Shown here one piece after another: positions 115-4,000 of a stretch of 4,075 bases of DNA. Source of the stretch: a virus (lineage: Duplodnaviria; Heunggongvirae; Uroviricota; Caudoviricetes); the IMG/VR virus record IMGVR_UViG_2778261316_000010. One strand, written 5' to 3'. Each line of letters starts with the position of its first letter. Position 1 is the first letter of the stretch. The translations under genes and the position numbers were made by a program. The notes beneath the pieces are model-generated. The model did no database searches. It saw nothing but the letters and a program-made list of their open reading frames with translations, and had not been told where the DNA came from.

Positions 115-190
115 GCCGATATAGCTCAGTTGGTAGAGCAGCGCATTCGTAATGCGAAGGTCGTAGGTTCGACTCCTATTATCGGCACCA
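115..190 (+). tRNA. thrW: tRNA-Thr (anticodon CGU)
   Basis: 76-nt sequence GCCGATATAGCTCAGTTGGTAGAGCAGCGCATTCGTAATGCGAAGGTCGTAGGTTCGACTCCTATTATCGGCACCA folds as a cloverleaf: acceptor GCCGATA/TATCGGC, D stem GCTC/GAGC, anticodon stem GCGCA/TGCGA with loop TTCGTAA (anticodon CGT), T stem GTAGG/CCTAT with TTCGACT loop, encoded CCA. It matches enterobacterial thrW as I recall it, the known attachment site of P22-type integrases. Confidence 0.95.
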
Positions 191-204
191 TTAAAATCAA
201 TAAG

Positions 205-1368
205 TTACACATCATTAGTACCTTCCTTATTTTTTGACTGGGACAAATTTGGGACCGATGGGTTCAGGATCGAGTCTATTTGCCGTGCGTGTTCGGTAAG
301 GTGATTAGGTGCGAGGTGAGCATATCGACGAACCATTTCGATAGACTCCCAGCCTCCCATTTCCTGTAACACTGACAACGGGACACCGGCTTGAACCAGC
401 CAACTTGCCCAGGTGTGTCTCAAGTCATGAAATCTGAAATCATCAATACCAGCTCGTCTCAGCGCCGCTTTCCAGGCTGTGTTTGCGTCATACCGCATCT
501 TCCTGACTGTTGGCGCTTTCGTTCCGTCTGGTTTGGTACAGCTTTCCTTGTACACAAATACCCAACGGTGATGATTCCCGATTTGTTTTTTCAATACGCG
601 ACATGCAGTATCATTCAGCGCAACGCCAATTGCGCGGTTTGATTTACTCTCTTCCGGGTTTATCCATGCCACCCGGCGCTGCATATCTATTTGTTGCCAT
701 TCAAGGTTGATGATGTTCGAGCGTCTTAAGCCTGTTGCCAGTGCAAATTCAACAACAGACTTTAATGGCTCCGGACATTCATCAATCAGCCTTTGTGCTT
801 CATGGGGCTCCAGCCAGCGGATCCGTTTATTCTTTGGTTGAGGCACTTTAATAATTGGTGCCTTATCCAGCATTTTCCATTCACGCTCTGCGGCTCTTAG
901 TAGGGCCTTTATAAATGAAAGATGCGTAGCCTTCGTTGCAACGGACGCTGGTTTTGGCGTGTATTCTGGAACAGGTTTCCCTTTTTTTCTGCATGCTTCT
1001 GCCCTGAGTTTCCAGTTTTCCTCATGACGCCGGTTCGTCATTTTCTGCATTGCTGAATAAATTTTTGATTCAGTGATGTCTCTTAGTTGCATCCCTGCGA
1101 AATGTTGAAGCCAGAATCCGATCCGGCTTTTGTCATCGTCCAGTGATTTCTTATGTGCTTTCTCTTCGAGCCACCTGACACACGCTTCCTCAAACGTCAT
1201 ATCAGGTATTTCACCAAGTTTGCTGACCCGCCATGCTTCAGCCTTTAGCTTGTCATGGAGCTCTGTCGCCTGCCTTTTGTCCTTTGTTCCAAGAGACTGT
1301 TTAAATCTTTTACCGTTCGGCAATGTGAAACTGGCGTACCATATTTCACTTCTGCGGAAGAGTGACAT
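205..1368 (-). CDS. int: Phage tyrosine integrase (site-specific recombinase), P22 Int-like
   Basis: 387-aa ORF starting [31 protein letters not shown], with GAGGAAA ribosome-binding site about 7 nt upstream of ATG 1368. C-terminal catalytic domain has the tyrosine-recombinase HxxR box ([10 protein letters not shown]) and the tyrosine nucleophile context (MVRRYAHL). It ends 15 nt from the tRNA 3' end, the classic tRNA-int arrangement. Resemblance to P22 Int is from memory. Confidence 0.95.
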
Positions 1369-1595
1369 TTTCTTTCCTCTGTTATGCCATCACCCGCGCT
1401 CACCTTGATAGTATGCAGCGGAGACTGAAGCGCCGCAATGCAGGCTTGTCGCGTTGTGAGGTAAGGAGATTTTGGTTTAGTGGGGTCTTTGCGTGTTGCC
1501 TGTAGGCGGCCTGTTCGTATCCAGTTGGTGGCGGTTGGTCTGGATATCTTAAGAAACTGACAGGCCTCATCGAGTGTGAGGCTGTATGATTCCAT
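1245..1595 (-). CDS. xis: Excisionase (Xis), P22 Xis-like
   Basis: 116-aa product from ATG 1595 ([31 protein letters not shown]...), preceded by GAGGT. It has an N-terminal HTH typical of excisionases and overlaps the int start by about 124 nt, as in lambda and P22. The ORF track's 126-aa version uses an upstream GTG without a convincing ribosome-binding site. Confidence 0.85.
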
Positions 1596-1845
1596 GGTTA
1601 CCTCTGCTTTTTGAACGCATGTCACGTAACTTCTTAATGTGTTCTGCCGTTTCGATCTCTTCTGCTATCCGATCTGCATCAGCTTTATTCACAGGTTCAA
1701 AGTCATGATTAAAGCGGAACATGCTGGCGATACATGTTCTGCCTTTTCGGATGTAGTGAACTTTGTTGTGGGTAGAACGCAGGATTTTGCAGGGAGTGCC
1801 GTGGTGGTCGACGTACCAGGTGTTAGGAAAAATGATTCTGAACAT
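1567..1845 (-). CDS. Hypothetical phage protein (92 aa), exo-xis region
   Basis: ATG at 1845 preceded by GAGGTG. It overlaps the xis start by 29 nt and is co-oriented with the operon. No family recognised from sequence. Confidence 0.65.
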   Translation of the reverse strand: MFRIIFPNTWYVDHHGTPCKILRSTHNKVHYIRKGRTCIASMFRFNHDFEPVNKADADRIAEEIETAEHIKKLRDMRSKSRGNHGIIQPHTR

Positions 1846-1892: not shown

Positions 1893-2111
1893 TCACAATC
1901 CCCATTGTTTGTTCTTAAGTTCGATCTCCTCCTGGCAACTTGCACAAGTCCGACAACCCTGAACGACCAGGCGTCTTCGTTCATCTATCGGATCGCCACA
2001 CTCACAACAATGAGTGGCAGATATAGCCTGGTGGTTCAGGCGGCGCATTTTTATTGCTGTGTTGCGCTGTAATTCTTCAATTTCTGATGCTGAATCAATG
2101 ATGTCTGCCAT
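1893..2111 (-). CDS. TraR/DksA-family C4 zinc-finger protein (lambda Orf73-like RNA-polymerase-binding regulator)
   Basis: 72-aa product with two CxxC pairs in the spacing of the TraR/DksA zinc ribbon (HCCECGDPIDERRRLVVQGCRTCASCQEEIE). Size and position in the leftward early operon match phage TraR homologues. Confidence 0.85.
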   Translation of the reverse strand: MADIIDSASEIEELQRNTAIKMRRLNHQAISATHCCECGDPIDERRRLVVQGCRTCASCQEEIELKNKQWGL

Positions 2112-2160
2112 CTTCCATTAATCCCTGAATTGTTGGTTAATACGCTTGAGGGTGAATGCG

Positions 2161-2189
2161 AATAATAAAAAAGGAGCCTGTAGCTCCCT
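2161..2189 (-). terminator. Probable Rho-independent terminator between orf71 and the TraR-like gene
   Basis: Minus strand reads AGGGAGC-TACAG-GCTCCT followed by TTTTTTATTATT: a GC-rich 5-7 bp stem, 5-nt loop and U-rich tract, 22 nt after the orf71 stop. Position is analogous to lambda tL terminators. Confidence 0.45.
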
Positions 2190-2209
2190 GATGATTTTGC
2201 TTTTCATGT

Positions 2210-2425
2210 TCATCGTTCCTTAAAGACGCCGTTTAACATGCCGATTGCCAGGCTTAAATGAGTCGGTGTGAATCCCATCAGCGTTACCGTTTCGCGGTGC
2301 TTCTTCAGTACGCTACGGCAAATGTCATCGACGTTTTTATCCGGAAACTGCTGTCTGGCTTTTTTGATTTCAGAATTAGCCTGACGGGCAATGCTGCGAA
2401 GGGCGTTTTCCTGCTGAGGTGTCAT
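2210..2425 (-). CDS. Hypothetical phage protein (71 aa)
   Basis: MTPQQENALRSIARQANSEIKKARQQFPDKNVDDICRSVLKKHRETVTLMGFTPTHLSLAIGMLNGVFKER. ATG at 2425 overlaps the TGA of the upstream 27-codon ORF (ATGA), suggesting translational coupling. The ORF track's 104-aa version needs a TTG start inside the methyltransferase gene and is not preferred. Confidence 0.6.
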   Translation of the reverse strand: MTPQQENALRSIARQANSEIKKARQQFPDKNVDDICRSVLKKHRETVTLMGFTPTHLSLAIGMLNGVFKER

Positions 2426-2505
2426 TGAACAAGTCCCATGTCGGCAAGCATAAGCACACAGAATATGAAGCCCGCTGCCAGAAAAATGCATTCCGTGGTT
2501 GTCAT
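2422..2505 (-). CDS. Candidate small hydrophobic peptide (27 aa), not in ORF track
   Basis: ATG at 2505-2503 overlaps the methyltransferase TGA stop (ATGA) and has GGGAGG 4 nt upstream. Product MTTTECIFLAAGFIFCVLMLADMGLVQ has a single hydrophobic helix-length core. Its TGA overlaps the orf71 ATG. Coding status is inferred from this coupling geometry only. Confidence 0.45.
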   Translation of the reverse strand: MTTTECIFLAAGFIFCVLMLADMGLVQ

Positions 2506-3059
2506 GCAGCCTCCCGACGGGCAAGAATCCTTGAGCCGAACGCCATCAACTCTCCACGATCAACGGTCGTAAAGTGGCAGTGTGTACGGGGGTATGGGTG
2601 CCAGATAATGAGCATCGAGCCTTTATTATTTCCACTGACGGGTTTCTCAGTGAGTGGGTTAATAAATGCCAGTCGTCCTGCCGTGATGAATCTGACCTCA
2701 CTGGCGGTTTGTATCGCTTCATGAAACCATCCGACAGATGTGTCAGCAGGCAATAACATTACACATCCCACACTACTGAATTTGTTTTCAGTGGCTGCCT
2801 TTTTCACAAAAGGGGAAATATTGCTGTATGGTGGATTCAACCAGACATAACCAGAGGCATATCCCATTGCTTCAGGCCATGAAGTGGTTAATGTGTTCTG
2901 CTCCTGTGAGATAAAAAGCCGACATAGTCGGTTTTTTTCGCTGGCGGCAGCATCAAGTTGAAAAACGAACTCTGCATTAAGCGCAGCAAAAATCTCTGGT
3001 GGTGTGCGCCAGCTGTCGCGATGTTCGGCAGGAGTATTGCTTCCGGTGAAATCAGTCAT
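2502..3059 (-). CDS. Phage-type DNA N6-adenine methyltransferase (Dam family, orphan)
   Basis: 185-aa product with the N-terminal WRTPPEIF...FVFQLDAAAS block and catalytic motif IV NPPY (GYVWLNPPYSNI), characteristic of the phage Dam N6-adenine methyltransferase family. GGGGG ribosome-binding site 4 nt before ATG 3059. No adjacent restriction endonuclease gene. Confidence 0.88.
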   Translation of the reverse strand: MTDFTGSNTPAEHRDSWRTPPEIFAALNAEFVFQLDAAASEKNRLCRLFISQEQNTLTTSWPEAMGYASGYVWLNPPYSNISPFVKKAATENKFSSVGCVMLLPADTSVGWFHEAIQTASEVRFITAGRLAFINPLTEKPVSGNNKGSMLIIWHPYPRTHCHFTTVDRGELMAFGSRILARREAA

Positions 3060-3213
3060 ACAGCCCCCGTTTATTATTTATCTCCTCAGCCAGCCGCTGT
3101 GCTTTCAGGGGATTTCGGATAACAGAAAGGCCGGGAAATACCCAGCCTCGCTTTGTAACGGAGTAGACGAAAGTGATCGTGCCTACCCGGATATTATCGT
3201 GAGGATGCTTCAT
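3052..3213 (-). CDS. Small phage protein (53 aa), lambda orf60a-like by position; not in ORF track
   Basis: ATG at 3213-3211 overlaps the exo TGA stop (ATGA) with GGGGAG 8 nt upstream. Product [53 protein letters not shown]. Its stop overlaps the methyltransferase start. In lambda the gene after exo (orf60a) overlaps the exo stop the same way; similarity is by position, not verified. Confidence 0.55.
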
Positions 3214-3488
3214 CGCCATTGCTCCCCAAATGCAAAACCAATTTCAGCTAGTGCCTCGTCCATTTTTTCGATGAACTCCGGCACCATCTCGTCAAAACTC
3301 GCCATGTACTTTTCATCCCGCTCAACCACGACATAATGCAGGCCTTCACGCTTCATACGCGGGTCATAGTTGGCAAAGTACCAGGCATCTTTTCGCGTCA
3401 CCCACATGCTGTACTGCACCTGGGCCATGTAAGCCGACTTTATGGCCTCGAAACCACCGAGCCGGAACTTCATGAAATCCCGGGAGGT
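3210..3488 (-). pseudogene. exo: Truncated exo (lambda Red-alpha exonuclease), C-terminal ~90 codons only
   Basis: Translation ...[92 protein letters not shown] is near-identical to the C-terminus of lambda Exo as I recall it. Upstream the frame has no start codon back to a stop at 3585-3587, similarity is lost, and the first ATG (3473) is preceded by CCTCCC rather than a Shine-Dalgarno. The N-terminal ~135 codons are absent. Confidence 0.85.
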
Positions 3489-3878
3489 ACTGTAATCGAC
3501 AGCTGGTCCAGTATGGTGTTTTTGAAGTTCAACGGGGCGAAATTTTCTGCCTCTGATTACCCTGTGCTGGCGAAAGTGTTTCCTTCACTGGTATTACCTG
3601 AAGCCCGCGGTGATTTCATTCGTATCTGGGATGACGGGCGAGGTGCCGATGGTGGTCGCGAATTATTAAGCTGGCAGGAAGCTACAAACTTTTCTCAGTT
3701 TGCCGGGAATATAGGCGGAGGTGCGGGACACACAATTAACTTTCATGATGGCATCGCCGGAAATCAGCCAGGATTTTCACGATTTAATTTCACCAGTAAC
3801 TCTGTGGGTGATGGTGTGAATTTTGTTGCTGTCAGACCGCGAAATATTGCATTTAACTTTCTTGTGAGGGCTAAATAA
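3489..3878 (+). pseudogene. C-terminal fragment of a phage side tail-fibre gene
   Basis: Plus-strand translation ...[55 protein letters not shown]... carries the tail-fibre collar signature (CNGA..S...YP.L ... LPD.RGRFIR.WD.G.G.D.GR...S.Q.DA). Only about 120-130 C-terminal codons are present and there is no credible start or ribosome-binding site; the ORF-track start at 3336 lies antisense to exo. Left boundary is approximate. Confidence 0.7.
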
Positions 3879-4000
3879 TGAAACCTGTTTTTGATGAAAA
3901 TGGGCTGGCTACAGTGCCGGGCGATATGCGTTGTTTTTATTATGATGCTGAAACATCTGAGTATACGGGCTGGTCTGATGAATATATTAATACTGGCGTA
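3878..4000 (+). pseudogene. Tail-fibre assembly gene, N-terminal 41 codons, interrupted by IS1
   Basis: ATG at 3878 overlaps the tail-fibre TAA (TAATG). MKPVFDENGLATVPGDMRCFYYDAETSEYTGWSDEYINTGV matches the N-terminal pattern of caudoviral tail-fibre assembly proteins (compare lambda Tfa ...IKIYNLLAGTNEFIGEG). The frame then runs into IS1 sequence at 4001. Confidence 0.65.

Follow-up and report, generated by a model that had tools for sequence, protein, structure and literature searches.

We identified a small phage-type adenine methyltransferase gene within a decayed prophage carried on a stretch of 4,075 nucleotides (IMG/VR virus record IMGVR_UViG_2778261316_000010; Caudoviricetes), here called the window. 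The whole window is identical to part of the Escherichia coli chromosome NZ_CM194533.1 of assembly GCF_061073875.1 and starts at the end of proA. The gene occupies positions 2502 to 3059 of the minus strand, stop codon included, and encodes 185 amino acids. It is quite likely that the product is a small Dam-type methyltransferase acting on GATC, that the gene was cargo of the leftward pL operon in a parent phage, and that it is now an intact, promoter-less passenger of a dead prophage and probably silent.

Profile searches placed the protein encoded by this open reading frame (ORF) in a defined family, with scores far above chance. The only Pfam family reported was PF05869 ("DNA N-6-adenine-methyltransferase (Dam)"; E value of 2.3e-56; 190.5 bits against a gathering cut-off of 28.1), matched at full length (profile positions 1-168 of 169). 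The NCBIfam equivalog TIGR01712 ("phage N-6-adenine-methyltransferase," phage_N6A_met) was matched at 165.6 bits against a cut-off of 97.05 over positions 3-165 of 165, PHROG 111 ("DNA methyltransferase") was matched with an E value of 1.5e-77, and the best PADLOC model was "orphan methyltransferase." The protein is thus a member of the S-adenosylmethionine (AdoMet)-dependent N6-adenine DNA methyltransferases of PF05869/TIGR01712, with the corresponding activity predicted, and RefSeq names it "phage N-6-adenine-methyltransferase" (WP_000129285.1). It does not belong to PF02086, as PF05869 was its sole Pfam family and its motif is NPPY rather than DPPY, or to MT-A70, for which there was no Pfam match and whose motif is DPPW.

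Consistent with this membership, catalytic motif IV, (D/N)PPY, is present as NPPY at residues 75-78, straight after a beta strand predicted at residues 71-74 in an AlphaFold2 (AF2) model, and the sequence LDAAAS lies at residues 35-40. In an alignment with the enzymes of phages T1, HP1, and VT2-Sakai, NPPYS, L35, D36, and A39 of LDAAAS, and D15, W17, T19, and P20 were invariant, as were N43, W61, W73, D106, S108, W111, F112, E121, R129, F132, I133, N144, and K146. Most of these positions were also invariant among 37 enterobacterial homologs, N75-S79, D36, and A38-A39 being among those that never varied. These patterns suggest that LDAAAS, as the equivalent of motif I, and the N-terminal D-x-W-x-T-P contribute to binding of the AdoMet cofactor.

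Because a sequence search of the PDB yielded no solved relative (the sole match had an E value of 0.28, as expected by chance), we modeled the protein with AF2 on the basis of 37 homologs and then searched by fold. The model, with a mean predicted local distance difference test score (pLDDT) of 84 and a predicted template modeling score (pTM) of 0.83, has a core of alternating strands and helices and indicates a single small domain with a class I (Rossmann-like) fold. In 185 residues there would be no space for a separate target-recognition domain. The best structural match was PCIF1, an RNA cap N6,2'-O-dimethyladenosine (m6Am) methyltransferase, at 16% sequence identity. Among the neighboring ORFs, we found no credible match to a restriction endonuclease model, and the arrangement is the same in the Escherichia phage PhiR30_1 (PV340558). 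The methyltransferase is therefore an orphan (solitary) enzyme, and homologs of its neighbors, orf60a, orf61, and a TraR gene, are also found in lambda. These findings bear out the initial annotation of this DNA, which had described a Dam-family N6-adenine methyltransferase with an NPPY catalytic motif and without a partner endonuclease but had given no strand. The profile search that it had suggested as a check returned the full-length PF05869 match, and a methyltransferase fold, the absence of which would have spoken against it, is indicated by the profile matches and the model alike.

The methyltransferase is 48.6% identical to the VT2-Sakai enzyme (orf32), 43.5% identical to the T1 enzyme (gene 20), and 36.9% identical to the HP1 enzyme (orf13), a GATC methyltransferase, whereas these three enzymes are mutually only 31-36% identical. 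M.EcoVT2Dam, the VT2-Sakai enzyme, is reported to target GATC (PMC6602927), and M.EcoT1Dam of phage T1 is described as GATC modifying (PMC4996451). In addition, M.Btr190III, a prophage orphan 35% identical to M.EcoT1Dam, methylated GATC when cloned (PMC4996451). In sequence space, the window protein is bracketed by GATC enzymes, which makes GATC the most plausible site to predict, and the target is most probably the A of GATC. The initial annotation had left the target specificity undefined; this holds insofar as no enzyme at least 80% identical has been characterized, but GATC is clearly predicted from the characterized relatives.

M.EcoVT2Dam (AP000363, 16434-16961; copies in 933W-type Shiga toxin [Stx] phages) belongs to the same Pfam and NCBIfam family, is 175 residues long against 185 for the window protein, aligns with it over NPPYS and the other motifs, and is likewise an orphan in a lambdoid E. 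coli phage. However, over half of the residues differ, and its gene is flanked by nin146-like and nin60-like genes in the nin region of the rightward (pR) operon, whereas the window gene is in the leftward exo-xis region. T1 Dam (NC_005833, 39024-39737), of the same family, shares the invariant motifs, its identity of 43.5% applying to the shared core, but comes from a virulent phage and has its own 45-residue N-terminal extension and a 14-residue insertion. HP1 Dam (NC_001697, 9166-9687) is a family member of similar size and also a temperate-phage orphan, but its phage is P2-like and infects another genus, Haemophilus. The Dam of the E. coli host is an alpha-class PF02086 enzyme with DPPY, in contrast to NPPY in the window protein, and the two resemble each other only in fold, with 9% identity in a structural alignment. 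Host Dam has a separate DNA-recognition domain, which would not fit in a protein of 185 residues. Other enzymes were considered and set aside as relatives or models: M.EcoGIX, which is plasmid borne and outside PF05869; the nonspecific Hia5 (with M.EcoGII), which has DPPY, is related to canonical Dam, and belongs to another family; M.EcoMIV of EC958 (ST131), a PF02086 enzyme with available native expression data that is not the same protein; and the Stx-phage rRNA methyltransferase, an MT-A70 enzyme with DPPW from a different family (PMC10810198).

The placement of the gene was read against the following features of the window, for which PGAP denotes the Prokaryotic Genome Annotation Pipeline.

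115-190, plus strand: thrW, tRNA-Thr (CGU), the chromosomal attachment point of the prophage remnant, with proA immediately upstream (ARAGORN; RefSeq).
205-1368, minus strand: tyrosine integrase, 387-residue ORF (Pfam PF00589, E value of 5.3e-48; annotation).
1245-1595, minus strand: excisionase-like helix-turn-helix protein (Pfam HTH_17, E value of 1.4e-8; TIGR01764 "excise" just under its cut-off; PGAP coordinates).
1567-1845, minus strand: DUF4222 protein (PF13973, E value of 1.9e-19).
1893-2111, minus strand: TraR/DksA zinc-finger protein (PF01258).
2171-2189, minus strand: putative terminator-like hairpin and T-run downstream of the orf61-like gene (consensus scan).
2210-2425, minus strand: orf61 homolog, 71 residues (PHROG 303, E value of 4.7e-36; DNA match to lambda orf61; "orf61" in PhiR30_1).
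2502-3059, minus strand: phage N6-adenine DNA methyltransferase of the T1/HP1/VT2 "Dam" family (profiles, alignment, and model).
2506-3056, no strand assigned: 551-bp cassette without a lambda counterpart (blastn against lambda).
3052-3219, minus strand: orf60a homolog, DUF1317 (PF07026, E value of 2.8e-33; 96% amino acid identity to lambda orf60a).
3210-3488, minus strand: C-terminal fragment of a lambda-type exonuclease, 92 residues, pseudogene (95.7% amino acid identity to lambda Exo 135-226; PGAP "exonuclease, missing N-terminus").
3488/3489, no strand assigned: deletion or rearrangement junction (genome comparison).
3489-3879, plus strand: frameshifted fragment of a phage tail-fiber gene (PGAP annotation).

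The methyltransferase gene lies between exo and xis, beside orf60a and orf61. By blastn, window positions 1916-2505 are 98.8% identical in nucleotide sequence to lambda 30418-31008 (an orf73-type frame and orf61), and positions 3057-3489 match lambda 31194-31627, which comprises orf60a and the last part of exo, at 97.5%; between 2505 and 3057, blastn against lambda gave no match. The cassette in this interval stands in place of lambda 31009-31193, essentially orf63 (annotated at 31005-31196). The methyltransferase stop codon abuts the left cassette boundary, and the orf60a stop codon overlaps the methyltransferase start codon (ATGACTGA; read directly from the sequence). The cassette substitutes orf63 with gene-exact boundaries, while orf60a, orf61, and the orf73-type TraR gene are kept at 97-99% nucleotide identity, which marks the orf63 position as an exchange slot within an otherwise conserved exo-xis region. 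The initial annotation had placed the gene where lambda carries orf61/orf63; the exo-xis interval and the replacement of orf63 are correct, but the orf61 homolog is still present at 2210-2425. A search for literature linking the exo-xis region to a methyltransferase returned unrelated mentions only.

The same gene, 100% identical in nucleotide sequence and with the same orf61 and orf60a flanks, is found at positions 2338-2895 of PhiR30_1. This phage has a complete 47-kb lambdoid genome, whereas the window remnant has all genes upstream of the exo fragment deleted. Leftward from the methyltransferase toward cI, the gene order in PhiR30_1 is exo, bet, gam, kil, two hypothetical genes, and cI; a literature search for a publication on the phage gave nothing relevant. 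In lambdoid phages, pL drives transcription of the exo-xis genes, which cI represses in the lysogenic state (PMC3824215). In an intact parent phage, the methyltransferase gene would be carried as cargo in the orf63 slot of the early leftward (pL) operon, and in a carrier such as PhiR30_1 the enzyme would appear early and only once the phage had infected or been induced. Before lambda DNA is packaged, only about half of its GATC sites are methylated by host Dam (PMC3299994). The phage enzyme may top up methylation of rapidly replicating phage DNA that host Dam cannot fully match, and progeny DNA would in this way be shielded from GATC-cutting restriction enzymes that are methylation sensitive.

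This operon context has been removed in the source genome. Beyond the junction at 3488/3489, the N terminus of exo and everything further are lost, including the pL control region, N, and cI, and the remnant, as annotated in the source genome, retains no genes for replication, regulation, lysis, or the head. The claim of the initial annotation that the prophage had lost its lytic genes thus agrees with the annotated order of truncated exo followed by tail-fiber fragments. A match to at least 80% of the window was found in 77 genomes, and the junction is unique to the source genome: all other listed matches end at 3489 with a full "lambda exonuclease family protein." The deletion is therefore strain specific and presumably recent, and as a consequence the intact methyltransferase ORF says nothing about selection for function in the remnant.

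A deletion reaching from inside exo to the tail-fiber gene would have left the methyltransferase without a promoter. A crude sigma-70 consensus scan revealed no promoter-like site on the minus strand between 1800 and 4075, and the consensus scan for terminators detected several terminator-like hairpins on that strand. In published methylomes, prophage methyltransferases have repeatedly been transcriptionally silent, and M.Btr190III appeared silent in its native host (PMC4996451). Moreover, GATC is about 99.9% methylated in E. coli by host Dam, so that any mark added by an expressed copy of the gene would probably duplicate an existing one; expression in the remnant would add little beyond host Dam, and a GATC mark from this gene, if GATC is its target, would be hard even to detect. 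We infer that the methyltransferase is most likely not expressed in the remnant.

Several observations weigh against a silent GATC enzyme. With regard to the target, the identity of 49% to the VT2-Sakai enzyme is below the level usual for transfer of a recognition site (about 80%; the Nanomotif threshold is 80%), and no enzyme at least 80% identical to the methyltransferase appears to have a measured specificity. Cloned M.Btr190III showed substantial off-target methylation (PMC4996451), and by analogy with it, specificity in the PF05869 family may be relaxed. With PCIF1 as the top fold match of the model, the fold alone cannot separate DNA from RNA substrates. With regard to silence, the negative promoter scan is weak, as it looked for crude sigma-70 consensus matches only, and an IS1 element lies about 1 kb upstream, just outside the right end of the window, and is transcribed in the same direction as the methyltransferase. 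Low-level read-through from IS1 into the methyltransferase is possible.

The points on specificity bear on the alternative that the protein is a DNA N6-adenine methyltransferase with another short motif or with a relaxed, nearly nonspecific target, which would protect the phage against many restriction systems. The protein is just 37-49% identical to characterized members, the off-target activity of M.Btr190III was significant, 185 residues hold no separate target-recognition domain, and nonspecific prophage adenine methyltransferases are known in other families (Hia5 and M.EcoGII). Nevertheless, GATC is the reported target of M.EcoVT2Dam, M.EcoT1Dam, and M.Btr190III as well as the target of HP1 Dam, and the characterized enzymes are more distant from each other than from the window protein. 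Furthermore, many residues outside the catalytic motif are invariant in all four aligned proteins. We therefore regard a target other than GATC as unlikely, and a GATC methyltransferase remains our preferred interpretation.

The initial annotation had also proposed that continued expression of the orphan methyltransferase epigenetically marks the host chromosome and alters host gene expression. The ORF has remained intact and does not differ from that of a complete phage, the IS1 transposase gene could in principle supply read-through, and gene regulation by orphan methyltransferases is reasonable in general, although EcoGIII, an example of such regulation, belongs to a restriction-modification system and is not an orphan. 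This proposal is not sustained by the state of the remnant, and we consider it quite improbable. The native promoter is deleted together with N and cI, the scan offers no substitute on the minus strand upstream, and any transcript would encounter several terminator-like hairpins with the N antiterminator gone. The deletion occurs in one genome only, which means that the ORF is intact because decay was recent and not because selection kept it. Finally, the predicted GATC mark would be redundant with that of host Dam, and silence is the pattern of prophage methyltransferases in published methylomes. It is very unlikely that both departures hold at once, namely, that this clade, less than 50% identical to characterized enzymes, has a relaxed or non-GATC target and that the gene is transcribed in the remnant, for example by IS1 read-through. 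If that were true, a dead prophage would give the strain a distinct adenine-methylation pattern with regulatory or antirestriction consequences.

Methylation of RNA such as rRNA, possibly with a partner, rather than primarily of DNA is suggested by analogy with PCIF1 and with M.EcoPA8orf6770P (/M.EcoGV), an MT-A70-type prophage enzyme of Stx phages that methylates 16S rRNA with a partner (PMC10810198), but is extremely unlikely here, given that the latter enzyme is in another family with DPPW, that PF05869, with members of demonstrated GATC activity on DNA, is the only Pfam match of the window protein, that identity to PCIF1 is so low, and that orf60a and orf61 occur in lambda without a methyltransferase and are thus not dedicated partners.

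As for its distribution, the methyltransferase gene was matched in 312 of 5,426 complete E. coli genomes, 244 of which hold at least 80% of its length, and among the matches listed the DUF1317 gene adjoins every full-length copy. Klebsiella, Enterobacter, Citrobacter, and other related genera have many homologs that are 65-84% identical, almost all of which carry the same name. Several percent of E. coli genomes carry the gene, which already bears the correct name of a family that is curated and anchored in experiments, and the case has little significance past correct annotation.

E. coli B strains (REL606, NC_012967, L008 4001-4613; also BL21 and derivatives) were observed to have a partial copy in their DLP12 prophage, which holds the C-terminal two-thirds of the methyltransferase at 98.7% identity (equivalent to window 2502-2872). 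There, a deletion joins the methyltransferase to part of replication gene P, beside the same DUF4222, TraR, and orf61 genes. In E. coli B, this module has decayed independently, and at another tRNA site (tRNA-Arg).

Outside the right end of the window, a tail-fiber-assembly fragment and IS1 are followed by an invertase and then by genes of a toxin-antitoxin island (ykfI/yafW and others). To the right of the junction (L001 15489-19477), we observed a tail-fiber-assembly gene split by IS1, further tail-fiber-assembly and gp53-like genes, and the pinE invertase. The tail-fiber fragment had no nucleotide match to the tail genes of PhiR30_1, and the remnant may descend from a phage whose tail module was of another kind, or two elements may have recombined to form it. 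The far side of the remnant (L001 21964-28076) contains a tandem island with ykfI/yafW, an antirestriction gene, yfjR, and others. Since the remnant lies in tandem with the toxin-antitoxin island, thrW carries at least two decayed mobile elements here. Across 3488/3489, a 180-residue plus-strand ORF (3336-3878) runs from the antisense strand of the exo fragment into the tail-fiber fragment and is an artifact of the rearrangement, not a gene.

Other observations concern the remaining genes of the remnant. The start of the integrase differs between PGAP (205-1323) and the longest ORF, which agrees with the annotation of the PhiR30_1 homolog (1,164 nucleotides; 387 residues); with the longer form, the integrase and excisionase-like genes would share 124 nucleotides. 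The TraR/DksA ORF is 93% identical in amino acid sequence to a lambda reading frame at about 30401-30613 of NC_001416, which we take to be "orf73" and for which the NC_001416 annotation has no coding sequence. Lastly, the 71-residue orf61-like protein matches lambda (about 30715-30928) in two frames, residues 1-24 in the annotated orf61 frame and residues 21-71 in another at 100%. This two-frame match indicates that the annotated 61-residue orf61 of lambda differs by a frameshift from the widespread 71-residue form (WP_000188870.1).
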